Assembly (NCBI GenBank): GCA_003446015.1
Contig: DMBU01000054.1
Span: 1,121-65,120, forward strand
DNA length: 64,000 nt
Origin: Bacteroidales bacterium
GTDB taxonomy: Bacteria; Bacteroidota; Bacteroidia; Bacteroidales; UBA12077
Direction: 5' to 3'
Shown here: piece by piece, positions 4,962-24,397 of the stretch
Layout: the number at the start of each line of letters is the position of its first letter
Numbering within the stretch: the stretch's first letter is position 1
Position numbers and translations under genes: made by a program
The notes under the pieces: generated by a model
The model's input: the letters and a program-made list of their open reading frames with translations, nothing else
Told to the model about the DNA's origin: nothing
Databases searched by the model: none

Positions 4962-6317
<1,356 letters not shown>

Positions 6318-7262: not shown

Positions 7263-7267
7263 ACAAG

Positions 7268-8305
7268 ATGAAAGAGAATAGATCAAAATCTATATTAATT
7301 ATATATACCGGAGGAACCATTGGGATGATCAAAGATCCTGAAACGGGAGTCTTATCTCCGTTTGATTTTGATCAGATTTTGGTTGAAGTGCCAGAATTAA
7401 AAAGATTTGGGTTTAAGCTTTCTACTACATCTTTTTCACCTTTAATTGATTCTTCAAACCTGAACCCCGAGGTTTGGATTAAACTGGCAGAAATCATTCA
7501 AGAAGAATATAATGCTTATGATGGTTTTGTAATACTGCATGGAACTGATACCATGGCTTATTCTGCGTCTGCTTTAAGTTTTATGCTCGAGAATCTCGAT
7601 AAACCAGTAATTTTTACAGGGTCTCAATTACCTATCGGAACTTTGCGTACTGATGGTAAAGAAAATCTTATTTCTGCAATTGAAATAGCTGCCACCGAAA
7701 AAAATGGACAAGCTCTTGCACCGGAGGTATGTGTTTATTTCGAAAATAAATTAATGAGAGGAAACCGCACAACAAAATATAATTCGGAACATTTTAATGC
7801 CTTTGAATCACCCAATTATCCTAATTTGGCTGAAGCCGGAATAAATATAAAGTTTAATTATGGTGCAATTCATTATTCAACAAACAAAAAAGATTTAAAA
7901 ATACATATCAGGTTGGATACAAATATTGTTATTTTAAAAATCTTTCCTGGAATTAATCAAGAAACAATACATACTATATTAAATTTAAATAATGTTAAAG
8001 CTATTATACTGGAAACATATGGTGCCGGAAATGCCCCTACTGAAAAGTGGTTTTTAGCTGAGATAGAAAGAGTTATTAAACAAGGACGGATAGTTTTAAA
8101 TGTTACTCAGTGTATTGCGGGGAGTGTTGATATGACAAAATACCAAACCGGAAATGAGCTTTTAAAGAGAGGTGTATTAAGCGGTTATGACATAACAACA
8201 GAAGCAGCTGTAACAAAGTTGATGCATATTCTGGGAAGAGAATTAAAGCAGGATGAATCTAAATTATTATTAAATCAATCTATTAGTGGTGAAATAACAA
8301 AATAA
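7268..8305 (+). CDS. ansA: L-asparaginase, type I
   Basis: 345-aa ORF with the IYTGGTIGM catalytic threonine motif, HGTDTMAY and GAGN. Confidence 0.85.
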   Translation: MKENRSKSILIIYTGGTIGMIKDPETGVLSPFDFDQILVEVPELKRFGFKLSTTSFSPLIDSSNLNPEVWIKLAEIIQEEYNAYDGFVILHGTDTMAYSASALSFMLENLDKPVIFTGSQLPIGTLRTDGKENLISAIEIAATEKNGQALAPEVCVYFENKLMRGNRTTKYNSEHFNAFESPNYPNLAEAGINIKFNYGAIHYSTNKKDLKIHIRLDTNIVILKIFPGINQETIHTILNLNNVKAIILETYGAGNAPTEKWFLAEIERVIKQGRIVLNVTQCIAGSVDMTKYQTGNELLKRGVLSGYDITTEAAVTKLMHILGRELKQDESKLLLNQSISGEITK

Positions 8306-8363
8306 TTATTTGATTTTGCTTATTTTTTTGTATTTTGTGCCCCGATTCGGGGCGATGTGTAAT

Positions 8364-8451
8364 GGAGAAATGGCCGAGTGGTCGAAGGCGCACGCCTGGA
8401 AAGTGTGTATACCTCACAAGGGTATCGAGGGTTCGAATCCCTCTTTCTCCG
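8364..8451 (+). tRNA. tRNA-Ser (anticodon GGA)
   Basis: Acceptor stem GGAGAAA/TTTCTCC, anticodon stem CACGC/GTGTG with loop CTGGAAA, a long variable arm, and T-arm GAGGG-TTCGAAT-CCCTC. CCA is not encoded. Confidence 0.9.
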
Positions 8452-8529: not shown

Positions 8530-9363
8530 ATGAAAAAATTATTTGCATTTATAGCAGTTTTTGGGATGCTTTTATTTGGAGCATCATTCTACACAGTTGC
8601 TCAAGATGAAACAACTGATGAAACAACTGTTGAACAAACCGATTCTATGGAAATGGATGAAGTGATGGAAGACACTACAGTTGTTGCTGAAGAAGTTGCT
8701 GAAGAAGTTGTTGCAGAGGTTGAAAAACCAGCTAAACTAAAACAAATCAAAATTAAATTTATTGAAGGAGGCCCAGGATTTATGGGTGTTGTTCTTCTTT
8801 GTTTAATTTTAGGTTTAGCTATCGCAATTGAAAGAATTATTTATTTGAATTTAGCATCTACAAACACTAATAAATTATTATTATCTGTTGAAGAAGCTTT
8901 AAATCAAGGTGGTGTTGAAGCTGCAAAAGAAATTTGTCGAAATACAAAAGGCCCTGTTGCAAGTATTTTCTACCAAGGTCTTGACAGAATGGATGAAGGA
9001 ATTGAAGTTGTTGAAAAATCAGTAGTTGCTTACGGATCAGTTCAGATGGGCTTATTAGAAAAAGGAATTACCTGGATTTCATTATTTATTGCTACTGCTC
9101 CTATGTTAGGTTTCATGGGTACTGTAATTGGTATGATTGGTGCATTTGACTCAATCGAAGCTGCTGGTGATATATCTCCATCTCTTGTTGCTGGTGGTAT
9201 TAAAGTGGCTTTACTTACAACCGTAGGTGGTTTGATCGTTGCAGTTATTTTACAAGTATTTTACAATTATATTATTTCAAAAATCGATGGCATCGTGAAC
9301 GATATGGAAGATGCATCAATTTCATTAATCGATATATTAGTAAAATACAACCTAAAAAAATAA
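8530..9363 (+). CDS. exbB: MotA/TolQ/ExbB proton-channel family protein
   Basis: 277-aa ORF with a signal/TM segment, an acidic N-terminal region, and a C-terminal MotA_ExbB-like core (APMLGFMGTVIGMIGAF...ALLTTVGGL). Sits upstream of two exbD genes. Confidence 0.8.
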   Translation: MKKLFAFIAVFGMLLFGASFYTVAQDETTDETTVEQTDSMEMDEVMEDTTVVAEEVAEEVVAEVEKPAKLKQIKIKFIEGGPGFMGVVLLCLILGLAIAIERIIYLNLASTNTNKLLLSVEEALNQGGVEAAKEICRNTKGPVASIFYQGLDRMDEGIEVVEKSVVAYGSVQMGLLEKGITWISLFIATAPMLGFMGTVIGMIGAFDSIEAAGDISPSLVAGGIKVALLTTVGGLIVAVILQVFYNYIISKIDGIVNDMEDASISLIDILVKYNLKK

Positions 9364-9369
9364 TTAATT

Positions 9370-9801
9370 ATGAATAAGATATTAAGGATAGTACTAATTG
9401 TCCTTTTCTCTATTTCTGCATTATTAACCTTATTGTTTTATGCAGGAGGTGAAGAAATAAGTGGTACCCCAAGATTTACAGACCTATATATTATATGGGC
9501 GGTTGTACTTACTGGACTAGCAGTTGGACTAGCAGTTATATTTCCTGTAGTTCAAATGATAACCAACCCTAAAAACGCAAAAAAAGGTTTAGCAGGGATT
9601 CTGGCATTACTTGTTGTTATTGTTATATCTTATGTAACAGCATCGGGTGAAATATTAGGAATTAAAAATCCTGATTTAGTACAATATGATGTTCCTTCTA
9701 CGTTAAAGTATGCAGGGATGATGCTTAATTCAGTATATATATTAGCATTTATTGCTATTGTCTCAATGATATATAGTGAAGTTGCTAAAATATTTAAATA
9801 G
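9370..9801 (+). CDS. hypothetical polytopic membrane protein inside the exbB-exbD cluster
   Basis: 143-aa ORF with four hydrophobic helices, packed tightly between exbB and exbD. Confidence 0.5.
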   Translation: MNKILRIVLIVLFSISALLTLLFYAGGEEISGTPRFTDLYIIWAVVLTGLAVGLAVIFPVVQMITNPKNAKKGLAGILALLVVIVISYVTASGEILGIKNPDLVQYDVPSTLKYAGMMLNSVYILAFIAIVSMIYSEVAKIFK

Positions 9802-9855
9802 AAATTCAGGCAAGGTCGTTTGACCTTGCTCAAACATTTAACTAAAACAAAGTTT

Positions 9856-10437
9856 ATGGCAAGAAAGTCAAAAGAAACTCCCGAAATTAACGGTGGTTCT
9901 ATGGCCGATATAGCTTTCCTTTTATTGATCTTCTTCCTTGTGGCTACAACTATGGATATAGATACTGGTTTATCCAGACAGATGCCTCCATATAATCCTG
10001 AAGCTCAGGAATCTAAAGATGAAATTAAGGAACGAAATGTTTACGTGGTTCTTATTAACTCAAATGATCAGATTTTAGTTGAAGGACAACCAATGAATGT
10101 TCACAAGATTAGAGAAGCAGCAAAAGAATTTATTGTTAATCCTGAAAACAAAAGCAATTTGCCAGAAAAAAGACCTGTAGAAATAGATTTCTTAGGTGAA
10201 AAAATGGTATCGAAAGGTATAATCTCATTGCAAAATGACCGTGGAACTTCTTATGGAATGTACATAAAAGTACAGAATGAGCTTATTGCTGCATACAATG
10301 AGGTGCGTGATGAAGTTTCCATGAGAGAATTTGGACGACGTTTTGATGATTTGGTAAAAGAAAAGCAGGATGCAATAAAAGAATATTATCCTCAGATTAT
10401 TTCTGAAGCTGAACCTAAAAATATCGGAGGGAAATAA
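9856..10437 (+). CDS. exbD: ExbD/TolR biopolymer transport protein
   Basis: Has the INGGSMADIAFLLLIFFLV motif typical of the ExbD N-terminus. The ATG at 9856 is preferred over the track start at 9820. Confidence 0.8.
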   Translation: MARKSKETPEINGGSMADIAFLLLIFFLVATTMDIDTGLSRQMPPYNPEAQESKDEIKERNVYVVLINSNDQILVEGQPMNVHKIREAAKEFIVNPENKSNLPEKRPVEIDFLGEKMVSKGIISLQNDRGTSYGMYIKVQNELIAAYNEVRDEVSMREFGRRFDDLVKEKQDAIKEYYPQIISEAEPKNIGGK

Positions 10438-10438
10438 A

Positions 10439-10912
10439 ATGGCAAAATTCGGACGAAAAGGAAAAGGTGGAATGCCTGGTATTTCAACAGCTTCGTTACC
10501 AGATATTGTTTTTATGTTATTATTCTTCTTTATGGTTAGTACTGTAATGAGAGAAACAACATTAAAAATTGAACAAAAATTACCTGGTGCAACTGAAGTA
10601 AAAAAGATGGAAAGAAAATCGTTGGTTAGTTATATTAATATAGGTAAACCAAGACCAACTTTTCAATCCATGTATGGAACAGAACCTAGAATTCAATTAA
10701 ATGATGCTTTTGCAAAAGTAGCTGATATCCGTAATTATATAACTGCTGAAAGAGAAAAGATGGACGAAAAAGAACGTCCTTTGATGACAGTTTCTTTAAA
10801 GGTTGATCAAAAAACTAAAATGGGAATTGTTGTTGATGTGAAGCAGGAATTGCGTAAGGCAAGTGCCTTAAAAATTAACTACTCAACAAGAAAAGTTGAA
10901 GTTATTGAATAA
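10439..10912 (+). CDS. exbD: ExbD/TolR biopolymer transport protein
   Basis: 157-aa ORF with the LPDIVFMLLFFFMV TM motif. Starts 1 nt after the previous exbD. Confidence 0.8.
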   Translation: MAKFGRKGKGGMPGISTASLPDIVFMLLFFFMVSTVMRETTLKIEQKLPGATEVKKMERKSLVSYINIGKPRPTFQSMYGTEPRIQLNDAFAKVADIRNYITAEREKMDEKERPLMTVSLKVDQKTKMGIVVDVKQELRKASALKINYSTRKVEVIE

Positions 10913-10933
10913 AAATAATTTTTACAATATATC

Positions 10934-10966
10934 AAAAAAGGAGATGATAAATTCATCTCCTTTTTT
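10934..10966 (+). terminator. rho-independent terminator of the exb operon
   Basis: AAAAAAGGAGATGA / TCATCTCCTTTTTT hairpin with a T-run. Confidence 0.8.
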
Positions 10967-11105
10967 GATTATTTTAATTTAATGAATTGAAAAGTTTAAA
11001 CATTTTCCAATAAAACTTATATTTGTAATGATTATCTTAGTATATTAAGAGATAATTTTTAACAAAGGGCGGGAGGAATTTCACTTTGTGCTTAAAATTG
11101 GTATT

Positions 11106-11501
11106 ATGAGAAAGACTTTAAATACACTATTCATTATTGTACTTCTTCTGTTTGTTTATACTTCTTCATTTGCTCAAAAAGACATATTTATTAAGGAGTT
11201 TCAGTTTGAATTAAAAAAGAAAAGTGCAAATCAATATGAAAATGAATATTTTCTTACTATTACCTTAAATAAAAATTCACTTTATAAATTTACGGTGTTA
11301 AATCATATTGGAGATTTTCCCGGAGTTGCAGTTGTCCAGATTTTGGAAAACGACAGGGTTGTAGCAAGCAATTACGTGAATGGAAAGTATTATGAGAAAT
11401 TCATGTTTAAATGCACTAAAACCGGATTCTACGATATCTTAATTAATTTTGAAGATAATCAATTAGGCTCTTCGCTAATAAAACTATTTTTAGTCCAATA
11501 A
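11106..11501 (+). CDS. hypothetical secreted protein
   Basis: ORF with a signal peptide (MRKTLNTLFIIVLLLFVYTSSFAQ). Last gene before the island border. Confidence 0.5.
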   Translation: MRKTLNTLFIIVLLLFVYTSSFAQKDIFIKEFQFELKKKSANQYENEYFLTITLNKNSLYKFTVLNHIGDFPGVAVVQILENDRVVASNYVNGKYYEKFMFKCTKTGFYDILINFEDNQLGSSLIKLFLVQ

Positions 11502-11546
11502 AAAATCCCAAAAATAAAAAAGGATTGATACATATCAACCCTTTTC

Positions 11547-11570
11547 AAGTGACCCAGGGAGGACTCGAAC
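11547..11570. repeat. island attachment-site repeat (left), a duplicated tRNA-Arg 3' fragment
   Basis: AAGTGACCCAGGGAGGACTCGAAC is identical to 45041-45064. Confidence 0.85.
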
Positions 11571-11706
11571 TTACTTTACACCCAAATACAATCAAGAACT
11601 TCAAAATACTAATAAACAAGGCAAATATACAAAATATTTGTTTGTAGTTGTACACGGATGTTTAAAAAAGTACACTTTATTGGGTGCAAGTGTGGGTGCA
11701 AATTAC

Positions 11707-11714
11707 TATCTTTG
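11707..11714 (+). promoter_or_regulatory. candidate -7 promoter element (TAtcTTTG) for the integrase
   Basis: TAnnTTTG match 20 nt upstream of the ATG at 11734. Confidence 0.3.
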
Positions 11715-11733
11715 ATTATCAAAAATTTATTAG

Positions 11734-12987
11734 ATGGCAACACTCACATATTTTATAAGAACCACAAAGAAACCAACAGAAAAGGTAAGTATTAGAGTTA
11801 GATTAAGGCATAATGAAACTTACTTTTATGCAAAAACTTCATATGCGGTTGCTCCCCAAAACTGGGATAAGAAGAAGCAACGAATAAAGCAGGGGAAAGA
11901 GCATTCAACGAGAGATACAATTAATACTAAACTGACTTCATTGGAAACCTATATAATGGATCAGTGGAACCTACGCATTGATAAAAATCTAATAGACAGC
12001 GAATGGTTGCAGGATTCTATCAATTTATTTTTTAAGAAAACCGTAAAAGAGGAAAAGGAAATATCATTACAAAGATTTATTAATAAATACTTCGATAATA
12101 TTGATTTGTATGTAAGTGATAAAACAGGAAAAAAGTTAAATCCTAGCACTATTCGAAAACTGAAAGCGAGTCAAGAAGTTCTAAAGGACTTTATTGAAAA
12201 GAGATTCGAAAGTATTTTGCTTACAGAAGTTAATTATGCTTTTTATGAAAGTTTTGTTCAATATCTAACTGATGAAAAAAAGTATGCAGTTAATACGGTG
12301 GGTAAACACATTGGAAGTTTAAAGGCAGTATTAAGCTTTGCAAAACGAAAGGGGTATAATATAGATACTGAGCGATTTAAAAGACTGAGTGAAGAAAGCG
12401 ATAATATTTATTTAAATGAAGAAGAGTTACAAAAAATATATAGTCTCGATTTATCTGAAAACAAACGTTTAGAAAAGGTGCGTGATCTTTTTATTGTTGG
12501 TGCCTGGACCGGACTTAGATTTAGTGATCTAACCATGGTAAATAAGGATAGTATACAAAATGATATGATTGTTGTTGAGCAAAGTAAAACATCGCAAAAA
12601 GTATTTGTTCCATTACACTGGATGACCAAAGCAATATTTGAAAAATATGATTACGAAATTCCCGTTCAGATAACCAACCAAAAGTTTAATGAGTTTATAA
12701 AAGAGGTCTGTGATAAAGCAAAAATTAATGATGTTTTTACAAAAGGAATAACAATTGCAGGAAAACGAAAAATTGAACAATTTAAAAAGCATCAAAAGGT
12801 TTCATCGCATACTGCAAGACGTTCATTTGCAACAAATTTATATAACTCAGATTTTCCAACTATCTCAATAATGGCAATAACAGGTCATAAAAGTGAAAGA
12901 GCTTTCTTATCATATATAAAAGTTACACCAGAAGAGCATGCAAAAAAACTTCAACGACATTGGGGGAATATTAATAAAACACTCTAA
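11734..12987 (+). CDS. tyrosine-type site-specific recombinase / integrase
   Basis: 417-aa ORF. The C-terminal catalytic region has WTGLRFSDL (Arg), HTARRSFAT (H-x-x-R) and ITGHKSERAFLSYIK (His and the Tyr nucleophile). The N-terminal arm-binding-like region is typical of Bacteroidota integrases. Confidence 0.85.
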   Translation: MATLTYFIRTTKKPTEKVSIRVRLRHNETYFYAKTSYAVAPQNWDKKKQRIKQGKEHSTRDTINTKLTSLETYIMDQWNLRIDKNLIDSEWLQDSINLFFKKTVKEEKEISLQRFINKYFDNIDLYVSDKTGKKLNPSTIRKLKASQEVLKDFIEKRFESILLTEVNYAFYESFVQYLTDEKKYAVNTVGKHIGSLKAVLSFAKRKGYNIDTERFKRLSEESDNIYLNEEELQKIYSLDLSENKRLEKVRDLFIVGAWTGLRFSDLTMVNKDSIQNDMIVVEQSKTSQKVFVPLHWMTKAIFEKYDYEIPVQITNQKFNEFIKEVCDKAKINDVFTKGITIAGKRKIEQFKKHQKVSSHTARRSFATNLYNSDFPTISIMAITGHKSERAFLSYIKVTPEEHAKKLQRHWGNINKTL

Positions 12988-13015
12988 TTTTATATAAGGC
13001 ACAATTATTAAAGAA

Positions 13016-13765
13016 ATGATTTCACACATTAAAAGCACTGTATTCTCAATTTTAATTAAAAAAAATAGCTCTAACATTAAACATCTTGGAACTGGATTTT
13101 TAATTGGCAAAGAAGGATTATTTTTTACTGTTGGTCATACTTTTAGAAAGATTAAAAAAGAAATTGAAAATAATGGCCTTAATAATATATTTGTTGCATT
13201 TCCTAAAAAACAGGCCGAATTAATTGAAATTAATAGATTGCAGTATAAATCAATTGAAATATACAAGCAAAAGGGGCCAACTTATATAGATATAGCCGTA
13301 GGTTCGATTCCTATTAAGAATGATGATTATTTGGTTTTCAAGAGAAAAAGGCCGTCTAATAAAGAAAAATTAACTGCTTATGGATATAAAAACATGAAGG
13401 ACAATGGTCTGCATGAATTATCTGAAAATACTGCAAACTTAGAAAAAGTAGAATTAAAACCAGAAAAGGTTAATAAAACACATGACATAGCTCTAATTTC
13501 AGATGTGAGAAGAGATTATGAATTATCAAGGGAAAAGGTAAACAGAAGTAGGTTTTTTAATAATTGTATTACTCTTGACAAAAGATTGTTTAGCGGGGGT
13601 AGTGGCTGTCCTATTGTTGATTCAGATGGATATGTTAGGGGTGTATTAATAGGTAGTTCTCAAATTGTCAAATCTTCAGATATGATTTTATCAAAGTATT
13701 GTACTAAATATATTAGATATCACACTAGTATCATGTTTGATATGTATCAAGACATTAATTCTTAA
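13016..13765 (+). CDS. trypsin-like (S1/chymotrypsin-fold) serine protease, no signal peptide
   Basis: 249-aa ORF with the triad in canonical order: TVGHTF (His), YIDIAV (Asp), GGSGCPIV (GxSGxP Ser). Confidence 0.6.
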   Translation: MISHIKSTVFSILIKKNSSNIKHLGTGFLIGKEGLFFTVGHTFRKIKKEIENNGLNNIFVAFPKKQAELIEINRLQYKSIEIYKQKGPTYIDIAVGSIPIKNDDYLVFKRKRPSNKEKLTAYGYKNMKDNGLHELSENTANLEKVELKPEKVNKTHDIALISDVRRDYELSREKVNRSRFFNNCITLDKRLFSGGSGCPIVDSDGYVRGVLIGSSQIVKSSDMILSKYCTKYIRYHTSIMFDMYQDINS

Positions 13766-13940
13766 TGTATAATGTTTAATTGAGGACCACTTTATTCTCA
13801 AAAAAATAGTTAAAAACATTGATCTAAATTGCAAAATAAAGTCTAACTATTTAGTAAGACATTTTATTAAAACTTTATAGAATTGTTTTATTTTTTTAGT
13901 AATTTCATCAAACATTTGATATTAAGAGATAGTATTTGTA

Positions 13941-15050
13941 ATGACCAAACTAAAAAGTGAGCTTATTCAAGAGTTAAGGGATTTAAATAAAAATCCTGAT
14001 ACTGAAATAGTTCCTTTTATAGGTGCGGGATCATCAAAACTTTTAGGATTACCGGATTGGAAAGAACTCATAGAGCAATACCATAAATATGTTGGTTGTA
14101 CTATTAGTTTAGAATCTATAAAGAAGGATCTTAAAGAGGATCTTTCTAAAGTTGCAGATTTAATATTTGAGAATTCTGGTAAAGATTTTGATTTATATTA
14201 CGAATTTATGGGAGGGATTACACCCAAAAATACTGGATATACCGCATTACATGCTGTATTAGTTAAGAATTTTCAAAAAATTATTACAACCAATTATGAT
14301 CAAGCTTTTGAGAATGCCTTAAGTGATGATAATATAAATGACTATAAATTATTAGTTTATCCAAATAATTTAATGTCAATTGATTTTCAAGGAAGGGTTA
14401 TTGCATATATACATGGACATATTAAAAGTGGAATTTATGTTTTTCGAAATGAAGAATATGAGCAAGCCTATCTACATGATACTAAAATAAAAAGTTTTCT
14501 AACAGAAATTATTTCAAAGAAAGTTTTAGTGTTTATTGGTTTTAGTTTTAGTGATAAGATGTTTAGAAATACAGTAAAACAAATTATCGCAGAAACAAAC
14601 GCAGTAAGAGAAAAAGAAGAGCAAGTTTTTGGGAAAAAAAGCAAGACAAATTTTGAACAAAAATTATATGTATTATTTCCAAGCGAAAATTTGAAAACAA
14701 AAGTTTTTAAACATGATTTAAGTAAATTAGGGATCAATTATGATGAAATAGAGGATCATATAAGCTTAAATGGGGAAGATGATTCTTTAGAAATGAAAGT
14801 TCTAGAATTAGAAGAAAGTGCCAATTTACTGAAAATTGAATTAGGAGAAAACTATAATAAGCTAAATGAATTGTACTTAAGAACTGAAAAAAATAGAGAT
14901 ATGTTAAAATATTTTAGCAATCTTAAAATTGAAGTAGTTGAATATGATGAAAACAATACCATTGAAATAGAAGAAATAATTAGACTAATAACCAAAGAAG
15001 AAATCAAACATTCAGATGATTTATCAGAAGCTCGCAATATAAAGAATTAA
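13941..15050 (+). CDS. SIR2-like (SIR2_2-type) domain protein with a coiled-coil tail
   Basis: 369-aa ORF with VPFIGAGSSKLLGLPDWKELI, ITTNYDQAFE, YIHGHI and VFIGFSFSD. These blocks characterise the defence-associated SIR2_2 family. Confidence 0.7.
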   Translation: MTKLKSELIQELRDLNKNPDTEIVPFIGAGSSKLLGLPDWKELIEQYHKYVGCTISLESIKKDLKEDLSKVADLIFENSGKDFDLYYEFMGGITPKNTGYTALHAVLVKNFQKIITTNYDQAFENALSDDNINDYKLLVYPNNLMSIDFQGRVIAYIHGHIKSGIYVFRNEEYEQAYLHDTKIKSFLTEIISKKVLVFIGFSFSDKMFRNTVKQIIAETNAVREKEEQVFGKKSKTNFEQKLYVLFPSENLKTKVFKHDLSKLGINYDEIEDHISLNGEDDSLEMKVLELEESANLLKIELGENYNKLNELYLRTEKNRDMLKYFSNLKIEVVEYDENNTIEIEEIIRLITKEEIKHSDDLSEARNIKN

Positions 15051-15054
15051 GGTT

Positions 15055-17823
15055 ATGTTAATAGAAGAGTTAAGAATAATACAAGATTATATTAATAATC
15101 CTAAGGACGTTAAGCTACCTGAAGATAGATTCTTTTTAGATAATGATATAAAAGAAGAGTTTTTTTGGTTAAAAGCGAGCATTAAAAATCAGAAATTAAT
15201 CATAAGTGATTTCATTAAAGATCATCCATGTTATATATCAAACAAATTAACAAGGATTCTAAGAACGGGTGAATACACGAAAATTGAGTATTATTTATTA
15301 GTGTTCCTGATAAATTTAACTGATAATTTGGTTAAGATGGAGAGTTCACTTTCTATTGTTAAGGATATAATTGATGAATACATTGTTAACGGAAATACTT
15401 CTAGCTGTAAACTTAATTCTCAAGTGCAATTTTTTATATCTAAAATGATAATTAGGTTACCAATAAAAGATTTATCTGACACATATATTGATTTTATAGC
15501 TGAAAAGGCACTTCATAATGATTCTGCACTATCATATCAAATAACAGATGTCTTTTTCCCAAAACTTCTTGAAAGCGGAAATAAAGATTTGGTTAAAAAG
15601 GTATTAATCAAATGGATATTTTCTTATGACATTAAGAATTCATCATTTGAGTTTTCACAATCTCCAATTTTATTACCTAGGTTTTATAGTTACAGTTTAG
15701 AAAATATTATATCTGATAGTAAAAAAATAAGAAGCTTAATAGAAATTATAGGAGCAAATGAATTATTTGAATTATCACTGGGTTTAATAAAAGAAGTTAT
15801 TAATAAAGCTCCAATCAAGTTTCATTCTATAAATATCCCAACAATTGAAAAAAGCGAACAAACCGTTAATGAAAATGATTTTTCATATTTATTAGTAAGT
15901 TTTATTAGAGAACAAATAAATTTAAGCAAATTAAGTAAGAAGTTAGTTACAAGTCTTTTAATATCAGAAGTTTCAATTATTAAGAGATTCGGGTATTATA
16001 TGATTGGATTGTATTATGTTGATTATAAGAATCTTTTTTGGAATTTGAAGGTGTACAATCCTTTAAATGAAGTAGAATCTAAATATGAAATATTCAGTCT
16101 ATTGAAAGAGAATTCTGAAGCAATAAAAAAAGAGGAATTAAAAATCTTATTTAATTGGATTGATAATATAGAGATTAAAGACTATGATGGTGACGCAGAT
16201 GAGATCAAAAAATTGAAAGTAATAAGAGGAAAGGAGTATATAGCAGCACTTGAAAAGATTAATGAAGAATTTATAAAGAGTGTAAAAGATAAAAAGAAAG
16301 AATTAGATAAGATTTATCCATATGAAAGAGAACATCCAGGCTATAATTCCTATTTTACTACTAGGGTAGGGTATGATTACCCAGACAGTGATGAAGAATT
16401 TAAACTTTATAGTAATAACCCACAGAATTTGGTAAAAAAGATTGAGGAAGATGATGATAAATGGGATTGGCTGGAAAAAGAGGGACAACAAGATAGATTA
16501 AGAGAACTTTTTAAAGAAAATCCTAATTATATCAAGGATACCAATAGTTTAGCAAAATTAGATTTTAATTATTTGTCTAATATCATTTATGGATTGGATT
16601 TGGCATTGAAGGAAGGAAAGATTATTGACTGGAATAAAATTATCAAGCTTATTAATACTGTAATAAATTCAGGGAAGTTTAATGAATCTACTCATGATAG
16701 AAATCAATTTGTTGGTTATGTAGGGTGGTTAATTAGGACTGCAACTGAAAGTGACGAAAAGCCATTACTTAAAGAACATTTGAGTTCATTAAAAGATATT
16801 TGTTTGAAGTTGTTAAAATTAAATACTCATTCAAAAAGGTTAAATAATGATCCTTTTTTTGATGTTTTGAATAGTTCAGAAGGTAAAGTTTTTGATGCAA
16901 CATTAAATGTTTTATTACAAAATGCTAGGTTATATAAGAAAAATGATGGTGATAAATGGATTAAGGAAATAAAGGATTATTACACATACGTCTTAAATAA
17001 TAATAAAATTTCTGAAGCATTTCTTTGGAGCGTTGCTGGACACTTACCTCAGTTTGGTTTTCTTCATATGGATTGGTTAATTGAGAATATAGATAAATTA
17101 TTTCCAAAGGGTAATTTGAAATATTGGAAATTATCCATGAGGTTTTATCACCGAATGTCTTCTACTGTTTATAAATCAATATTTGATTTACTTAATTCAA
17201 ATGGGCATTATGATTTAGCTTTAAAGATTTTTATTAACAAGGAAGAAGGAACAAGGGACATAATTTCACATATTATTGTAAGTTATATTGCAGGTTGGAA
17301 AGAACAAGAAATAGATAATTCCAATGGTTTGTTGAATAGAATTATTAAAAAACAAGAATGGACTCAAATTGAATCTGCAATAAATTATTTTATCACTAAT
17401 AAAAATATTGAAACAAATAGATTGATTGAATTTTGGCGTTTAATGGTAGGTAATGTTGAAAAGGAAAAAGATAAAATAGGAAGAGAATTACTAAGACTTT
17501 CACATAGAATCTACTCTATAGATGATGAAATATATGAACTAATGTCTCAAACATTAGATTTATTAGATGATAAAAGAGAATTGCATGAACTATTAAGGAA
17601 TCTTCTGAAATCTATTAAAGGGGATCCGTTGAAAAGAGCAAAGTTAATTATGAAAGCGACATCGAAAGACCTAGATCAGGGGTATTATATCGATGATGAT
17701 ATAAAAAAATTATTAGAAGAATTAGAAAACGAAGATGTTTTATTTAGATTGAACTTTATAAATGATATGGTTTCAAAAAGATTATTTGGTCTTTTTGATA
17801 TTTATTATTCAGAAGAACTATAA
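15055..17823 (+). CDS. large helical-repeat protein, no enzymatic motif seen; candidate sensor partner of the SIR2 protein
   Basis: 922-aa ORF starting 4 nt after the SIR2 stop. Leu/Ile/Lys-rich and helix-like throughout, with no P-loop or nuclease motif visible. Confidence 0.5.
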   Translation: MLIEELRIIQDYINNPKDVKLPEDRFFLDNDIKEEFFWLKASIKNQKLIISDFIKDHPCYISNKLTRILRTGEYTKIEYYLLVFLINLTDNLVKMESSLSIVKDIIDEYIVNGNTSSCKLNSQVQFFISKMIIRLPIKDLSDTYIDFIAEKALHNDSALSYQITDVFFPKLLESGNKDLVKKVLIKWIFSYDIKNSSFEFSQSPILLPRFYSYSLENIISDSKKIRSLIEIIGANELFELSLGLIKEVINKAPIKFHSINIPTIEKSEQTVNENDFSYLLVSFIREQINLSKLSKKLVTSLLISEVSIIKRFGYYMIGLYYVDYKNLFWNLKVYNPLNEVESKYEIFSLLKENSEAIKKEELKILFNWIDNIEIKDYDGDADEIKKLKVIRGKEYIAALEKINEEFIKSVKDKKKELDKIYPYEREHPGYNSYFTTRVGYDYPDSDEEFKLYSNNPQNLVKKIEEDDDKWDWLEKEGQQDRLRELFKENPNYIKDTNSLAKLDFNYLSNIIYGLDLALKEGKIIDWNKIIKLINTVINSGKFNESTHDRNQFVGYVGWLIRTATESDEKPLLKEHLSSLKDICLKLLKLNTHSKRLNNDPFFDVLNSSEGKVFDATLNVLLQNARLYKKNDGDKWIKEIKDYYTYVLNNNKISEAFLWSVAGHLPQFGFLHMDWLIENIDKLFPKGNLKYWKLSMRFYHRMSSTVYKSIFDLLNSNGHYDLALKIFINKEEGTRDIISHIIVSYIAGWKEQEIDNSNGLLNRIIKKQEWTQIESAINYFITNKNIETNRLIEFWRLMVGNVEKEKDKIGRELLRLSHRIYSIDDEIYELMSQTLDLLDDKRELHELLRNLLKSIKGDPLKRAKLIMKATSKDLDQGYYIDDDIKKLLEELENEDVLFRLNFINDMVSKRLFGLFDIYYSEEL

Positions 17824-17846
17824 AATTAAATTAGATATAGATTTAA

Positions 17847-18173
17847 ATGTGGTCAAAAGAAGAACTCCAAGTTTATATAAGCTACTGTAAACTGAATAAC
17901 TTAAAATATGAATGTGTCTGGATAAATATGAATGATGATGAAAGATTAAATTTACTTGGAAAACTACATCAAAAAATGCTTCAAATTGATAAATCTGTTA
18001 AAGTGTATCTTGATTTTGAATATGTTGATTCTTTAAGGTATTCTTTAATCGATTTTGTTAAAGACGAAATGCCAAATAAGTTACTTACCTGGATTCCGGA
18101 TAACTTTAGCACAAAACAAGAAATGGTAAAATATGTAGATAATTACGTTAAAAAAGAGCTCTACTGGAATTAA
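17847..18173 (+). CDS. small hypothetical protein, third gene of the SIR2 operon
   Basis: 108-aa ORF 23 nt downstream of the 922-aa gene on the same strand. Confidence 0.45.
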   Translation: MWSKEELQVYISYCKLNNLKYECVWINMNDDERLNLLGKLHQKMLQIDKSVKVYLDFEYVDSLRYSLIDFVKDEMPNKLLTWIPDNFSTKQEMVKYVDNYVKKELYWN

Positions 18174-18182
18174 ATATAAAAA

Positions 18183-18325
18183 GGTCATTTGCAACAAACT
18201 TATATAACTCAGATTTTTAACAATTTCAATAATGGCAATAACAGGTCATAAAAGTGAGAGAGCTTTCTTATCATATATTTAAGTCACACCAGAAGAGCAT
18301 GCTAAAAAACCTCAAAGGCACTAGG
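18183..18325 (+). pseudogene. decayed 3' fragment of a second tyrosine integrase gene
   Basis: About 143 nt align with integrase positions 12822-12964, roughly 85-90% identical by eye. The fragment has a 1-nt deletion and in-frame stops (GATTTTTAA, TATATTTAA). Confidence 0.8.
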
Positions 18326-18439
18326 AAAAATTTGCTAAATAAAGTCTGACTATTTGGTTAGTATTTGGTAATTTTATTATAATCATATTCCAATTAGATG
18401 GAATAATTATCCAACTATTGAATTGTTAGGCAACATTGT

Positions 18440-19474
18440 ATGAAGAAACTTAAAACATATCACTCATTTAATGATAAGGGAGAATGTTACTTCCCTTCAG
18501 TTCAAGAAATAAATGATTTCGAAAAAAATGGATTTCATCCTATTTTACTTTTGGATAGTTGTGTTTGCTTAGATTTAATAAAATTTGTGAATTATAAGAA
18601 AAAATCTCAGTTGGATAAGGCAAAACTAAAAAATTATCTAGAATATATTAAAAAACACAAGATTGAAACAATTTCGATGTTTGGACTACTTGAGTTATGT
18701 CATGATCCAAAAACAATGGAATTTGATATTAACAAATTTTGGGAATTTAATAATAAGATTGACTTTATTGAAAAAATCCCAATGAATTATGTAAACAGTT
18801 ATAGGTTTGACTTTGATAGGGATTATATTGTTACAGATTTGAACGAATTTGAGACAAATTCAATTATAGCTTTTAGACCATTATTGTTGACAACATATTG
18901 TTGTTTACTAAAAATTAGAGAAATAAGCTTTAATGGTTTAGAGAAAAGTAAAGCTATAAAGAATATTGAAACGTTTAGAGATTGGTTAATTAATGAATTA
19001 GACATATCAATGGCAATTGAATATCATCTTGCGATGAATATATTCGGCGGTATAAGCGAACTTAGAAAAATGATATGTATTGATACAAAAAAGCATGATG
19101 TAAAGAAAATACTTTGGGGAACATCTTGGGATATCTTTCATTCTAGAATTAATGGAAACAATGCTGAATTTTCTGGATATTTTGGAGAAAAAATATATTC
19201 GACCTTTATAACCAATGATTCTAATTTGTTTAAATTAATTTCAAAAATTTCACTAGAAGCTATATTTTTAAATTCTGAAAACAACAGTTCAACAAGTATG
19301 ATAGTTGCATCAAATGAATTGCCACATTTTGAACCAGCATTTATAGATGAAAGTAATTCAAAAATGAAAAATATATTTTCAAACAGATTACTAATAAAGA
19401 AGCAATTTAATGAATCCAAGATACTAGAAATGATTGAGAAGTTAGAGTATAGTAACAACGTTGCCGAACGATAA
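18440..19474 (+). CDS. hypothetical protein, possibly a PIN-like nuclease fold
   Basis: 344-aa ORF. Acidic positions are spaced as in PIN domains: ILLLDSCVCL, GLLELC, TSWDIFH, FITNDSNLF (the T-x-D motif). Sits 39 nt upstream of the NACHT-like gene. Confidence 0.45.
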   Translation: MKKLKTYHSFNDKGECYFPSVQEINDFEKNGFHPILLLDSCVCLDLIKFVNYKKKSQLDKAKLKNYLEYIKKHKIETISMFGLLELCHDPKTMEFDINKFWEFNNKIDFIEKIPMNYVNSYRFDFDRDYIVTDLNEFETNSIIAFRPLLLTTYCCLLKIREISFNGLEKSKAIKNIETFRDWLINELDISMAIEYHLAMNIFGGISELRKMICIDTKKHDVKKILWGTSWDIFHSRINGNNAEFSGYFGEKIYSTFITNDSNLFKLISKISLEAIFLNSENNSSTSMIVASNELPHFEPAFIDESNSKMKNIFSNRLLIKKQFNESKILEMIEKLEYSNNVAER

Positions 19475-19513
19475 GTTAAAAGACTCATTACATAACTGGA
19501 AACCATAAAAAAA

Positions 19514-22500
19514 ATGAACTTAAATTATTTATATACACCGATTCAGACTAGCGTTGACCCACCAATTGACACTAAAGAACAAGTACTGCCTTTAGAAAAA
19601 TTATCTTGGGAAGACTTTGAAAAACTGTGTTTAGCTGCTGTACAAGTTGATTTTTCAATAAACGAGTGTGAAATCTATGGTATAAAGGGGCAAGCACAAG
19701 AAGGAATAGATATTTTTGCAAGGCAATCAAATGGAAAATATAGTTCATACCAATGCAAAAGATATCAAGAATTTGAATTAAATGACATAAATAATGCTGT
19801 TAAATACTTTAAAAGCAAAGAATTCTTTGATAAAAGTGATAAACTATTTTTGTGCACTTCCTGCGAATGGAACAAAACACAAGTTCAAGATAGATTTGAA
19901 GAATTAAAAACTGAACTTCAAAAAGATAACGTAACATTAGTAAAATGGGATAAAATTCAACTGTCTAGACTTCTTAAAAACAAACCACAAATAGTGTTTG
20001 ACTTTTTTGGCTTAGAATGGGTGAAAAAATTTAATGGTGAACCCGCTTTACAACAAATTTCAAAATCAAAAAAGTACGATGCTAAAAAAATAATTGAGTT
20101 TAGGAGTGAGTTGTACGAATTTTACTCTACAATTTTTAATATTCAAGATCCTGGTATTCCTATAAAAGAACTAAAAAGTCCATATACTTTACAAGATAGG
20201 TTTATTATTCCAGACATTCTTTCAAACCTAAAAGACGAAGGTTTTGAAAACAATAATGAAACTTCTTCTTCAATCATATATCAAGATCAGTATTATAATG
20301 ACGATAATAGTTATGGATTTGTTGAAAATGGGTTAAGGAAAAGAAATTTCAAAAATCAAAATGATGTAGAAGAAAGCAACATTGATATTCGGATTAATGC
20401 TGATGATGCGCTTATAAGCAATGATAAAAATATAATTATTGGAGACCCCGGAGCTGGTAAAAGTAGTTTACTTAGATATATAACACTTGACATTTTAAGT
20501 CCGAAACCTCAGTTAGAAAACATTTCTCAAAAACATGGCAAAACCTTACCAGTATGGTTGCCTTTTGCTTTTATAACAAAACACCTTAGTAATAATGATT
20601 CTTTAAGTATTTCCGAAATACTAAATCTTTGGTTTAATGGGTTCGGAAAAGGCTATTTGTTCGAAATTGCAAAAGAAGCTTTAAATGATGAACGACTATT
20701 TTTAGTTATTGACGGAATTGATGAATGGAGCAGCCTTTCATCTGCACAACAAGCGATTGCACGTATCGAAACAATAAGAAAATTATATGATTGCAAAGTT
20801 CTTTATTCTAGCAGACCATATGGTTTTAGAATATTAAAAGACTTCTTCACAAACCTAAATGTCCTAAATCTAGCAGGATTTTCTAAAGCTCAACAAAGAA
20901 ACTTTGTTAAGAAATGGTATGATAAATGGGCTTCATTACAAGGCGATAGTCAAGATGAAGATTTCTCAAAAACACAGACTAAAAATTTTATAAAAGAATT
21001 AGAGCAATCAGGGGATTTAAAAAAATTAGCTGAAATACCACTGCTGTTAAGTATTTTGATAATACAAAAAATGCAAGATTCGGTATTGCCTAAAAATAAG
21101 CTTGAGGCTCTTAAAGAAATAACACAATATTTAATAAAAAAACACCCTGTAAAACGTATAACTGATGCAGGAATTGTACAAGAAAAAATAAATGAAGTAG
21201 ATTTTAAAGATATTTTCTGCGAGCTAGCCATTTACATTCAAAAAGAAAGTAATGATGGTGTAATTTTTAAAAGTGATGCACATAAAATAATAAAGCAATA
21301 TCTAGTTTCTTATGCGGGTTATGATGAAGCAAGAGCTAAAGTTCGTAGCCAAGAAATAATTGAGCTTGGTGCAAATAATTATGGAATTATAATTGAAAAA
21401 TCAAATGATGAAATTTCTTTTGGTCATAAGCAATTTCAGGAATTTTTAGCAGCTCAATATTTATATGAGTCTGATGATGACACAATAAGCCAGTTTGTAA
21501 ATCAGTATGGAGCTAATCCTACTTTTCACCAAGTAATTATGAGCTTGTTTGGTTTAATGCAATTAAAACAGGTAAAAAAGTATAAAAAACATTTTAAAGC
21601 ATTAAAAGAAGCAGTTTGCGAAAAATTTCAAGAGGATTACCTTAACCTAATTTCATATGAGATTTCAATTAATTTAGACAATGCACCGACTGATGTTATG
21701 AATGAAGCTTTTGATTCAATCATTCATGAATTCGAATATGAAACTGACCCGTCATACAAAGAAGCTTTACTTAAACTAATTATTAGTGCTCTGCAAACGG
21801 GAAGATTAAAAGAAAAGGTTGAATGTTTCCTTGTACAATTTTTCCCATACGAGTATAAGTACAGAGATTATCGAGTTAATGCTTTAGGATATTCTAATCA
21901 GTTAAATGCAATTCAAGTAGAATTTCTGAAGAAAGCGTTAATCAATGGGACAATCAATACAAGATATGATGCTTCTTATGCATTCAAAAAACACATAAAA
22001 AACAAAGAAGTTTTTAGTTTTATAAAAGATATAATTTATAACTGCTCAAATCCAGATATTTTAGCTTTTGCAATTAATAGTATTTCAACTAACGACATTG
22101 CAGAGCAAGAAAGAGATGATCTTATAAAGTCTGTTGTAGTTAATGTGCCAATCGTACAACTTTACTTATTTAAATATAAAGTTTTCACAAAAAAACATAC
22201 TCAAGATGATTTAGAACTAATATTACCAATTGTAAACCAATTGCCTTATCAGCTAAAACAAGAATCGATTGAATTATTAATTAGTGGATTTAATCAAAAC
22301 AGTAACCTTAAAGAAATACTAGTTAAATCTATTGATAGAAAGGGATATTACAACGAAAAAGAAACTACAGTTGATGGTGAAATTGCCTGGAAGGTACTTT
22401 TTCATTCCTTTAATAAAGACAAGGATGTAATTAATCTTATTAAATTACAATTTGAGAATGAAGAATTTCCATTTATTTCTGTTGATAAACATGAAATATT

Positions 22501-24397
22501 TCAAAACTTGCGTTATTACTTTAAAGATACTAAAGAATTGGTTCCTTCTGTTGAAAAGTGGTTGGACAATCGATTAGAAAAGTACAGTTTTGTTAACCCC
22601 GAAGTGGCATTTGTATGTCTGTTTATTCAGACTGAAAAAGCAAAAGATATTCTTCTTAAAGATTTGCCAAAGACAAATTTTTCTCACTGGAATGTAATGG
22701 CTCTATTGGAAGGTTGGTCTGATGATATGGACATTAAAGAAAAACTCAAAGAGTATTTCAGAACGATTGAAAAATCAAAAACATCTGCAGCCGCACATTT
22801 TATATCAAAAGTTTTTGATAGTAGCGAAAAAGAGGAGGCTATAAAAATTTTAGAAGAAATCCTTTTTGATAAGAAAATAACCTTTAGAGAAAGGGCTATT
22901 TCTGCACTCATTGAAATAGATAAAGATTATTTTGAGAACAATATTTTAAAAACACTTATTAATGAACTTGAATCCTTCCCTAAAGACATTTTTGGTCAAT
23001 ATTATTCTGCACTTGACATAATTGTAAAGAGTTTTCGTTCAAACACAATTGTGCAATCTTATGTATTAGCACGGATAGAAAGTGATAATAATTTATACAG
23101 CTTAGCTGTTCAGTATTTTCCTGAGTTAATAAAGGAGGAGGAAAAGCTACTTAGAAAATCAACTCCATTATCAAAAGATTTAAGGACATTAATTATTGAG
23201 TCTTTTACGAATTTATCAGTTCTGCCAAGTGGCATTGAATATGTTTTAAGCGATTTCGAAAAGGAAACAGTAGAAGAAATAATGGGTGATATGGCGGCAT
23301 GTTTATTCAACCATATCAAAGAAACTAAAGTAGATAAAATTACAGAAATTAGTAAGCCAATGGTTTTTGCAATGGGCTTTGACTATGAGGTAAAAAGAAG
23401 TATTGCGTTTACAGGTTATTTAATTTCTAAAAAATTAGACGAATATTTTTCTGTAGAAAATGCTGAAAACCCCAAAGATAGTTCTACACGTCTGGATATT
23501 TTTAACGAATACGGTTATAGGAAATCTACGAGCGGATTAATGATAAAGTCTATAGTAGATAATTTTGACTCTCTTATCTCTTTTGCGGGCAGAGATTTTA
23601 ATAAAATTGTTGGGCATCTAAAGCATAGCAAAGATATTGAGGATATTTGGGGATTCTTTGCAAGACATTCTGTGAAATCATCTCCCACATATAGCCATAT
23701 AATTGAATTTATATCGAACAATTCCACCACAATTAAAAATAGTTATTTAATTAGTTTTCTTAACAGAACAGCACCTAGAAGTCCTATTTTAAAGGATATT
23801 TTATTACGACATATTAAAAATAATGATAGTAATAGAAGTGGTAATATGATTCTTGCAGGTAGACTATTAGGTACTAATTTTAAAAATGACACCCAAGTTC
23901 ATAAAGAAGTTTGTATGGTTCAGGATGTTTATGATGTTGGAAGAATTATGGCGTTATGCAATGGATGGCAGGAAGAACCAATTCTAAAAAAAATATTTGA
24001 TGACATAGTTAAATATCAAATTCCAGTAGATAACTATGTAGGCTTCAGTCTTAAGTTTTTATTTCGAGACGTAAGTAATTTGATCGAATTCATTAAAGAT
24101 ATATCTAAAAATATTGGTGAATTTAAACGATACCACAAGTTTTTCTTCATCCCAATGATTGAACGCTTGAGGAGAGATAAAGATTTTAGCTTAGCTATTA
24201 AGGAGCTTTTATTATCTAGCAAATCATTAAGCGAAAAAATTTCTTATTACAACTTACTAGCAGAAGTTAATATGGTGGACGAAGATGTCACTTTATGGAA
24301 AAATAAAATAGCTGATTTCAAAAATGACTTTGGTTATGACATTGTTTCAAACAAAACAGTTAGATTAAAGGACATTTTATACGATTATTATTACTAA
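19514..24397 (+). CDS. STAND/NACHT-type NTPase with an N-terminal Mrr-like PD-(D/E)xK nuclease domain and a ~1100-aa C-terminal helical-repeat region (Avs/bNACHT-like)
   Basis: 1627-aa ORF. The N-terminus FEKLCLAAV...QEGIDIFAR...YQCKRY matches the Mrr_cat pattern (D...Q-x-K). Walker A is IIIGDPGAGKSSLLRYI (20441-20464) and Walker B is LFLVIDGIDEW. The C-terminal region is long and helix-rich. Confidence 0.7.
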   Translation: MNLNYLYTPIQTSVDPPIDTKEQVLPLEKLSWEDFEKLCLAAVQVDFSINECEIYGIKGQAQEGIDIFARQSNGKYSSYQCKRYQEFELNDINNAVKYFKSKEFFDKSDKLFLCTSCEWNKTQVQDRFEELKTELQKDNVTLVKWDKIQLSRLLKNKPQIVFDFFGLEWVKKFNGEPALQQISKSKKYDAKKIIEFRSELYEFYSTIFNIQDPGIPIKELKSPYTLQDRFIIPDILSNLKDEGFENNNETSSSIIYQDQYYNDDNSYGFVENGLRKRNFKNQNDVEESNIDIRINADDALISNDKNIIIGDPGAGKSSLLRYITLDILSPKPQLENISQKHGKTLPVWLPFAFITKHLSNNDSLSISEILNLWFNGFGKGYLFEIAKEALNDERLFLVIDGIDEWSSLSSAQQAIARIETIRKLYDCKVLYSSRPYGFRILKDFFTNLNVLNLAGFSKAQQRNFVKKWYDKWASLQGDSQDEDFSKTQTKNFIKELEQSGDLKKLAEIPLLLSILIIQKMQDSVLPKNKLEALKEITQYLIKKHPVKRITDAGIVQEKINEVDFKDIFCELAIYIQKESNDGVIFKSDAHKIIKQYLVSYAGYDEARAKVRSQEIIELGANNYGIIIEKSNDEISFGHKQFQEFLAAQYLYESDDDTISQFVNQYGANPTFHQVIMSLFGLMQLKQVKKYKKHFKALKEAVCEKFQEDYLNLISYEISINLDNAPTDVMNEAFDSIIHEFEYETDPSYKEALLKLIISALQTGRLKEKVECFLVQFFPYEYKYRDYRVNALGYSNQLNAIQVEFLKKALINGTINTRYDASYAFKKHIKNKEVFSFIKDIIYNCSNPDILAFAINSISTNDIAEQERDDLIKSVVVNVPIVQLYLFKYKVFTKKHTQDDLELILPIVNQLPYQLKQESIELLISGFNQNSNLKEILVKSIDRKGYYNEKETTVDGEIAWKVLFHSFNKDKDVINLIKLQFENEEFPFISVDKHEIFQNLRYYFKDTKELVPSVEKWLDNRLEKYSFVNPEVAFVCLFIQTEKAKDILLKDLPKTNFSHWNVMALLEGWSDDMDIKEKLKEYFRTIEKSKTSAAAHFISKVFDSSEKEEAIKILEEILFDKKITFRERAISALIEIDKDYFENNILKTLINELESFPKDIFGQYYSALDIIVKSFRSNTIVQSYVLARIESDNNLYSLAVQYFPELIKEEEKLLRKSTPLSKDLRTLIIESFTNLSVLPSGIEYVLSDFEKETVEEIMGDMAACLFNHIKETKVDKITEISKPMVFAMGFDYEVKRSIAFTGYLISKKLDEYFSVENAENPKDSSTRLDIFNEYGYRKSTSGLMIKSIVDNFDSLISFAGRDFNKIVGHLKHSKDIEDIWGFFARHSVKSSPTYSHIIEFISNNSTTIKNSYLISFLNRTAPRSPILKDILLRHIKNNDSNRSGNMILAGRLLGTNFKNDTQVHKEVCMVQDVYDVGRIMALCNGWQEEPILKKIFDDIVKYQIPVDNYVGFSLKFLFRDVSNLIEFIKDISKNIGEFKRYHKFFFIPMIERLRRDKDFSLAIKELLLSSKSLSEKISYYNLLAEVNMVDEDVTLWKNKIADFKNDFGYDIVSNKTVRLKDILYDYYY

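Follow-up and report, generated by a model that had tools for sequence, protein, structure and literature searches.

How does an island of anti-phage genes come to carry, between two of its defence gene sets, the dead end of an integrase gene whose intact copy stands near the edge of the island? This question is raised by a stretch of 64,000 nucleotides from an uncultured Bacteroidales bacterium (GenBank assembly GCA_003446015.1, contig DMBU01000054.1, positions 1,121 to 65,120), hereafter the window, in which a live tyrosine integrase gene is followed by a protease gene, a SIR2-containing gene set, a decayed copy of the integrase 3' end and a gene set with a NACHT protein. Judged from sequence comparisons, the decayed copy is very probably the relic of a second, related element within a composite island, showing that the two anti-phage gene sets arrived separately. 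The original prediction, made from the DNA letters of the window, had offered two readings of the repeat, either two related elements stacked in tandem with loss of the 5' part of the inner integrase, or exchange of cargo behind the integrase stop, and had argued for separate acquisition of the SIR2 and the NACHT module; the latter claim follows from both readings and holds.

The repeat was recovered by BLASTN, which aligns 12823-12954 with 18185-18315 at 91.7% identity over 132 nt (E=3e-48) and opens a single gap, and guided by the alignment with a sister island (L008, introduced below) the homology extends over ~12816-12968 and ~18178-18330. The description of 18183-18325 as a decayed copy of the integrase end at 12822-12964 was thereby confirmed, including its lesions, which are a 1-nt deletion near 18217 and two premature in-frame stops (TAA at 18280-18282, TAG at 18322-18324) ahead of the native stop at 18340-18342. 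The live gene encodes the Pfam domains Phage_integrase (PF00589, 5.5e-12), Phage_int_SAM_5 (PF13102, 3.2e-11) and Arm-DNA-bind_5 and keeps the family-invariant residues R250/R262, H359, R362, H385 and Y394; with the R...HxxR...H...Y residues and a SAM-like N-terminal domain it has the predicted make-up of a tyrosine recombinase. The downstream copy encodes the box II-to-catalytic-Tyr region, as does the live segment, yet it comprises residues ~362-411 only, with a frameshift and two premature stops, and is a pseudogene fragment, which derives from an integrase and not from an unrelated conserved gene. Three independent assemblies of the organism (ENA, JGI and Logan) show 100% identity to the window over all stretches that they share with it; the junction of the remnant is spanned by ENA and JGI contigs, the end of the live integrase is also covered by an ENA contig, and a Logan contig begins and finishes within the two repeat copies, so that contigs break only inside the repeat. 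Because the three assemblies agree and the junction is spanned, the repeat is not an assembly artefact. A candidate third copy at 44921-44960 (68% identity) lies in AT-rich coding sequence without an integrase signal at the protein level and was taken as a chance match.

The repeat is accompanied by a 21-nt pattern with exact matches in the window only at 13834-13854 and 18337-18357 (0.02 matches with up to three mismatches are expected by chance), and the match widens to 33 nt at 85% identity (13826-13858, M1, against 18329-18361, M2). In L008 the integrase ends in ...HWEKFVK, and the motif opens with the AAA TAA of its final codon and stop; the 55 nt that follow the motif match window positions 18358-18413. 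The decayed copy reads ...H, stop, EKFAK, stop, with the same AAA TAA at 18337-18342, where the ancestral integrase gene had its final codon and its own stop. Since the motif is contiguous with the integrase both in L008 and in the decayed copy, it is a gene end rather than a free intergenic site: it combines the natural terminus of the integrase gene with the first part of the 3' untranslated region (UTR) and belongs to the duplicated block, and window positions 18178-18413 are one contiguous relic of ~55 codons, native stop and ~70 nt of 3' UTR. The original claim of a shared 21-nt intergenic motif was thus right about two exact copies and wrong about their nature, as they belong to the integrase end. 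As had been proposed, a protease gene sits between the integrase end and the first motif copy: this segment, whose peptidase open reading frame (ORF) matches Pfam Trypsin_2 (1.4e-6) and stops 60 nt ahead of M1, parts the live integrase from M1 and is missing in L008, where the integrase runs directly into the motif.

Two other roles for the motif were considered. A function as terminator is doubtful: only M2 folds moderately (-11.3 kcal/mol, z=-2.5), M1 and L008 do not (z=-0.9 and z=-0.2, respectively), and a scan for consensus terminators at the motif found none. An independent conserved element was rejected as well, as four of five metagenome matches had nothing else in common with the window; the fifth (L015) shows a perfect but unrelated terminator hairpin and a weak, AT-rich 74-nt match to the window. 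A scan of a viral collection for the motif yielded no matches.

Whether the dead copy is a local duplicate or the remnant of a second element can be asked of its codons, for in a fresh duplicate that decays neutrally, differences should be spread evenly over codon positions. The longest relic in the clade (L009, see below) differs from its live counterpart at 66 positions, 46 of which are third positions and 43 synonymous, where 21% synonymous differences would be expected at random (p=7e-15). Under null models of in-place duplication, the harshest of which combines a neutral relic with a selected live copy and a strong transition bias (kappa=8), 32-43% would be expected (p between 4e-8 and 2.5e-4). 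In the window, 12 of the 19 differences between live and relic copy are synonymous (p=1e-4; 0.007-0.05 under harsher nulls), and with L008 as outgroup the same is true for 7 of the 12 changes assigned to the relic lineage (p=0.006-0.03). Because of this synonymous excess, a signature of purifying selection, the relics mostly diverged as functional integrase genes, which argues for their origin from separate, related elements. Relative to L008 the live and relic copies of the window are sisters (13 shared sites; 12 changes unique to the relic, 6 to the live copy), and the partner elements should therefore stem from the same local pool.

Similar relics recur in the clade. In four samples (L009-L012; integrase 56% identical) the last 507 nt of the integrase are found again 1.55 kb downstream on the same strand, with 85.8% identity to the live end and many stops, and this copy brackets two unrelated genes, for which defence annotation in L009 detected a helix-turn-helix (HTH) domain only. 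In L105, whose integrase is 58% identical, a relic of 76 nt, which corresponds to the last ~25 codons, is located upstream of the live integrase; here the order is the relic fused to a truncated PBP-like ORF, a DPP-IV gene, an element-end sequence that is common to L009, a pair of GGGTGCAA motifs and the live integrase, a tandem-like layout that has kept its inner end. Altogether, same-strand integrase 3' relics occur in three of six close-clade lineages and in none of ~75 more distant loci (IMG/VR, GTDB), where second integrase matches are separate paralogues in mixed orientations. The contiguity of the relic with its stop and UTR, the synonymous excess and the recurrence of relics in L009 and L105 all speak for stacked related elements, the first of the two original readings. 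The relics measure 33, ~150, 507 and 76 nt, and the homology breaks off at different distances from the stop (-15, +5, +45 and +75 nt); with such variable junctions the breakpoints are not fixed and give no sign of a dedicated recombination site, as would be expected for deletion or homologous exchange. Several short-read contigs end in the integrase 3' region (L021 and L110 within the window repeat; L103, 10001-10843, cut at residue 281), and integrase-end repeats may be commoner than assemblies reveal.

The second reading, exchange of cargo after the integrase stop, is best seen in L008, an 8.4 kb Logan contig that shares the chromosomal flank and an att remnant with the window and whose integrase is 92% (protein) and 84% (DNA) identical to the live one; in species-representative genomes no integrase relative exceeds 37% identity. 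Between the 3' UTR (to 18413) and a conserved segment at 24479-24542 the window holds a 344-aa ORF and the NACHT gene, whereas L008 holds eight unrelated ORFs, among them a Ser/Thr kinase similar to the PD-T4-6 defence family (2.5e-34), and the flanks of this slot are 83-89% identical between the two islands (window 18178-18413 and 24479-24542). The comparison with a homologous island that had been called for thus shows that cargo does vary at this position, and exchange between the same conserved flanks is borne out. With conserved flanks, unrelated defence cargo and two alleles observed, the slot has the appearance of a defence hotspot of mobile elements; the hotspot of P4-like satellites reportedly lies near the integrase. 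Besides the kinase, the L008 slot (2096-8223) contains seven ORFs without significant family match (sub-threshold HNH and HTH only), which are candidates for new defence genes. Conservation in the integrase family ends at "HW", beyond which 5-25 residues of hypervariable sequence follow, and the live and the relic copy differ in their tail allele (GNINKTL and EKFAK, respectively). The final integrase codons evidently travel with the downstream DNA, and variable cargo in this integrase clade appears to start directly behind "...EEHA..HW", the conserved sequence in which the catalytic domain ends.

The original prediction missed the limits of the island, the tRNA-Arg att repeats at 11547 and 45041. 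The site bounded by this exact 24-nt repeat (AAGTGACCCAGGGAGGACTCGAAC; 0 expected by chance) is empty in a related genome (L113, flanks ~87% identical), which matches the window to 11570 and again from 45038, and in which the flank gene, an intact tRNA-Arg and LeuRS follow one another without insertion. The repeat pair together with the empty site identifies 11571-45037 as a 33.5 kb insertion at tRNA-Arg. No similarity was seen by eye between the att core and the left junction of the relic. Paired GGGTGCAA motifs match the window twice only (11682 and 44978; 0.01 expected), near each island end, and such a pair also precedes the integrases of L009 and L105; we infer that it is an arm-type or regulatory site. 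A mobilization protein of the BfmA/BtgA family, whose N-terminal domain scores above the family cutoff, is encoded near the right end, and no relaxase domain was recognised in the adjoining ORFs. This right-end backbone (41160-45024, minus strand) comprises the BfmA/BtgA-family protein (170 aa), a DUF6633 protein (188 aa) and ORFs of 332 and 289 aa; the latter two gave no family match, and one right-end ORF without family may be a divergent relaxase. A PHROGs scan of ten island ORFs was not informative (only the DUF6633 protein matched, to two families of unknown function). Since there is a mobilization gene and no informative match to a phage family, the island is read as an integrative mobilizable element (IME) and not a phage; with the integrase at the left and a BfmA-type mobilization gene at the right it looks like a Bacteroidota member of this class. 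The features of the island are compiled in Table 1.

Table 1. Features of the tRNA-Arg island and of its integrase relics, in window coordinates.
Feature	Position	Strand	Remarks
attL, left island boundary	11547-11570	+	exact 24-nt copy of the tRNA-Arg 3' end, AAGTGACCCAGGGAGGACTCGAAC
Paired GGGTGCAA(N4)GGGTGCAA motif upstream of integrase	11682-11701	+	
Live tyrosine integrase	11734-12987	+	417 aa; C-terminal tail ...HWGNINKTL, then stop
Copy A, live integrase 3' segment	12816-12968	+	codons ~362-411, box II RSFAT through HW; duplicated at 18178-18330
Protease segment	12969-13825	+	variant integrase tail and stop; trypsin-like peptidase ORF 13016-13765
M1, 33-nt integrase-end relic	13826-13858	+	final codons with stop and beginning of 3' UTR; reading frame lost; aligns to L008 stop region
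Split DSR1-like defence pair	13941-17823	+	SIR2 ORF 13941-15050 (369 aa), ORF 15055-17823 (922 aa)
108-aa ORF	17847-18173	+	no match in Pfam, PADLOC, PHROGs, NCBIfam
Copy A', putative dead 3' end of second integrase	18178-18342	+	last ~55 codons
M2 and conserved integrase 3' UTR	18329-18413	+	L008 1814-2050 matches 18178-18413 at 83%; weak hairpin 18332-18371
Cargo slot as filled here	18414-24478	+	344-aa ORF 18440-19474; Mrr_cat-NACHT protein 19514-24397
Conserved right flank of cargo slot	24479-24542	+	89% identity to L008 8270-8334
BfmA/BtgA-family mobilization protein	41160-41672	-	NCBIfam NF041200, 7.9e-14, 51.6 bits against cutoff 24
Second paired GGGTGCAA motif	44978-44997	+	44 nt inside attR
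attR core, overlapping tRNA-Arg(TCG) 3' end	45041-45064	-	tRNA 45043-45116; ARAGORN; Rfam tRNA 65 bits

The two anti-phage gene sets differ in kind. PADLOC Dsr1 models match both ORFs of the first pair: the SIR2 ORF (Pfam SIR2_2, 1.5e-19) is followed by an ORF of 922 aa that resembles the C-terminal part of Dsr1 (9e-105, model positions 291-1193 of 1227). This order, an N-terminal SIR2 and then a long C-terminal region, is that of DSR1, but here it is divided over two ORFs 4 nt apart (369 and 922 aa) instead of forming one polypeptide, and the SIR2 part reaches 32 bits against the cutoff of 1400 of the NCBIfam Dsr1 equivalog. The pair is thus not a canonical DSR1, which would be a single polypeptide scoring above that cutoff, and probably works like one. 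Because the homologue in Fluviicola (L022, 38% identical) is likewise in two genes (8787-10004 and 10001-12781), the split is a genuine architecture and not the product of pseudogenization. This Fluviicola pair, the only other homologue of the cassette (38% aa identity), has no integrase nearby, and the 108-aa ORF is absent beside it. In the second set, the Mrr_cat-NACHT protein (1627 aa) matches Pfam NACHT (4.5e-10) and Mrr_cat_2 (1.6e-5). No PADLOC system model matched it or the 344-aa ORF; the pair gave weak NTPase-loop matches only, including a weak one to NCBIfam EruA, and the two genes may constitute an undescribed two-gene NACHT defence variant. The G+C content is lower in the DSR1 cassette (0.261) than in the integrase (0.308) or in the NACHT cassette (0.288), in keeping with a composite island.

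The island also carries a GIY-YIG protein and, farther right, a polymorphic-toxin locus (27967-40681), which includes an Endonuclease_1 and lamin-tail-domain protein, ORFs of 1230 and 166 aa, and a protein of 2088 aa with CARDB, DUF6443 and Peptidase_M91 domains. A near-identical strain (L111, flanks 97.6% identical) is without 11556-27493, that is, the integrase and all defence genes, and its toxin locus is a variant (8889-17836) in which an Ntox33 tip and an RHS protein occur, so that the two halves of the island, left and right, can be separated. At its junction (8083-8373) the att core is reduced to its first 9 nt (AAGTGACCC), after which come ~280 nt without a match in the window, with homology again from 27494, which is not a simple deletion of the window arrangement. 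An element of ~72 nt with an internal inverted repeat (AAGGTCTTTYRTTTTTA ... TAAAAATGAAAGTYCTT) is present in three copies in the island (24771-24842, 25547-25618 and 40898-40969). It has no match in Rfam, a scan of the island against which recognised the tRNA as the only known RNA family; a small RNA, a family of terminators and a miniature repeat element are all conceivable. In the chromosome left of the island, two glutamate dehydrogenase paralogues (2196-3533 and 4977-6317; 72-79% nucleotide identity) flank dprA (3662-4786). At 62397-62490 and 62767-62874, two neighbouring gene ends share ~80% identity, each with Pro-rich C-terminal coding sequence followed by a similar hairpin, suggesting tandem paralogues.

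How might such a composite have been assembled? With moderate confidence we favour a chain of accretion and deletion, in which related elements of the tRNA-Arg family, each with an integrase followed by cargo, would have been joined head to tail, most likely by site-specific integration of one beside another at the shared tRNA-Arg att site. Deletions would then have stripped the inner integrase of its 5' part and removed the att site between the elements together with whatever backbone was duplicated, and the result would be what is found today: one live integrase and one outer att pair enclosing the protease, a relic, the split DSR1 with the 108-aa ORF, a second relic, and the 344-aa and Mrr-NACHT genes. 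Separately, the slot behind the integrase turns over between sister islands, probably via homologous recombination in its conserved flanks. A decayed inner integrase that was once a functional, distinct allele is what a composite island should contain, and both the synonymous excess and the differing tail alleles indicate that it is present here. L008, in turn, provides a single-integrase sister island with a relic-type junction and different cargo.

Several observations weigh against this account. There is no third att copy inside the island, even with up to three mismatches allowed, and accretion thus requires its later deletion; likewise no relic of a second mobilization backbone was found. 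The seams are tight, as the relic begins 4 nt after the stop of the 108-aa ORF and M1 follows the protease stop at the distance of 60 nt given above, so that two large and remarkably clean deletions are needed. An island with the integrase and NACHT genes alone, or with the integrase and DSR1 genes alone, was not found in the collections searched, in which L008 is the only close sister island; exact look-ups of the integrase and of the 344-aa and 922-aa proteins retrieved the same arrangement only and no polymorphic pre-insertion state. Finally, the codon signal of the window itself comprises only 12-19 sites, with p ~0.03-0.05 under a strong transition bias.

In the main rival account the segments were added in one step. 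A crossover in the integrase gene could anchor DNA of a related island, the far end of whose cargo would join illegitimately within the 3' part of the resident integrase, either by homology-facilitated illegitimate recombination or by an out-of-register crossover between two related islands. Such an event would leave the integrase, the new cargo, the displaced 3' end of the resident integrase and the resident cargo, with no need for tandem integration. The added segments are indeed small and free of backbone or att relics (0.86 kb for the protease, ~4.3-5.4 kb for DSR1, ~2 kb in L009), all breakpoints of downstream relics fall in the 3' 40% of the integrase near the end of the homology anchor, and the junctions abut the ends of cargo ORFs; the codon signature fits equally well, as one copy would be the allele of the donor and the other that of the recipient. 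Nevertheless we consider this mechanism rather unlikely, for the tandem-like layout of L105 with its retained element end favours true accretion in the clade. Its experimental basis lies in naturally transformable bacteria, not in Bacteroidales. A further, still more doubtful extension is that the integrase 3' end serves as a homology landing pad, where short donor segments consisting of a new tail and one to three defence genes are added serially. If true, the island would grow as a homology-driven cassette array without att sites or integration of whole elements, and each event would orphan the previous integrase end, leaving a readable record of successive acquisitions.

The remaining alternatives fare considerably worse. 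The integrase 3' end could have been duplicated in place when DSR1 was inserted, for example through Campbell-type integration of a small circle that bore the same integrase end, with neutral decay of the downstream copy thereafter; the 13 sites shared by live and relic copies, which are closest relatives with respect to L008, would suit this origin, and the surplus of unique changes in the relic (12 against 6) is as predicted by such decay. However, the excess of synonymous third-position differences, including those on the relic lineage (7/12) and in L009 (43/66), and the differing C-terminal tail alleles contradict it, no source of such a circle is evident, and we regard this origin as very improbable. 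Just as improbable is a dedicated cassette platform comparable to attI/attC of integrons, on which a site-specific recombinase would capture defence cassettes at the integrase end or at the motif. Three events (protease, DSR1, and NACHT versus L008 cargo) within ~90 nt of the integrase stop, a possible hairpin at M2 and the recurrence of relics in the clade might hint at a platform, but a fixed site with conserved sequence or structure, as in integrons, was not found: the junction differs in every event, relic length varies between 33 and 507 nt, M1 and L008 form a weak hairpin or none, L009 and L105 lack the motif, searches of metagenome and viral collections yielded no related copy of it, and repeated cassette-end sites were not found elsewhere in the island. 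In addition, stop codon and UTR explain the motif simply. Chance similarity or an assembly artefact can be dismissed. Short matches are common in sequence this AT-rich (~27-30% GC) and the metagenome matches to the motif were otherwise unlike the window (four of five) or weak (L015), but a match of E=3e-48 that translates to the box II-to-Tyr region and is identical in three assemblies is of another order.

The relic marks a precise seam, at the level of sequence, in a defence island, across which the split-DSR1 and Mrr-NACHT modules entered separately, and the position just after the integrase is where this element family loads and swaps its anti-phage cargo. Annotators can use orphaned integrase 3' ends that point the same way as the live gene to split composite islands into their component acquisitions, and the codon-position test separates a second element from a local duplicate. 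The previously undescribed family of tRNA-Arg mobilizable elements in uncultured Bacteroidales is also a place to seek new defence genes, the leads being the 344-aa and NACHT pair, the 108-aa ORF and the unassigned ORFs of L008.

Accretion followed by decay is a documented route for islands at tRNA genes and for streptococcal elements (PMC5704250, citing Pavlovic 2004). In the ICESt1/CIME model, site-specific elements with a common att site accumulate at a tRNA gene, where inner ones decay and lose their integration genes, the composite can act as one unit, and a truncated inner integrase marks the seam, a pattern that the island described here resembles. In contrast to this classical case, in which by the definition of CIME an internal att site persists, the present island has neither internal att nor internal backbone, its seams lie 4-60 nt from the ends of cargo ORFs, and it belongs to uncultured Bacteroidales and carries anti-phage cargo. 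The integrase-only or IME-type defence islands of E. coli (PMC10121019) are similar in their tRNA site, their presence in only some genomes, their integrase, their several defence systems and the scarcity or lack of other mobility genes; the present island differs by its BfmA/BtgA mobilization gene, its occurrence in Bacteroidales, its polymorphic-toxin locus and its internal integrase relics. With the hotspots of P2-like phages and P4-like satellites (PMC9122126) it has in common a fixed position with conserved bounds in which sister elements hold unrelated defence systems, but it is neither phage nor satellite, two alleles of the slot were seen, and cargo appears to have been added serially, leaving relics. 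The island is thus a clear new example of known modes of island growth, namely accretion with deletion and a cargo hotspot, rather than a new kind of system.

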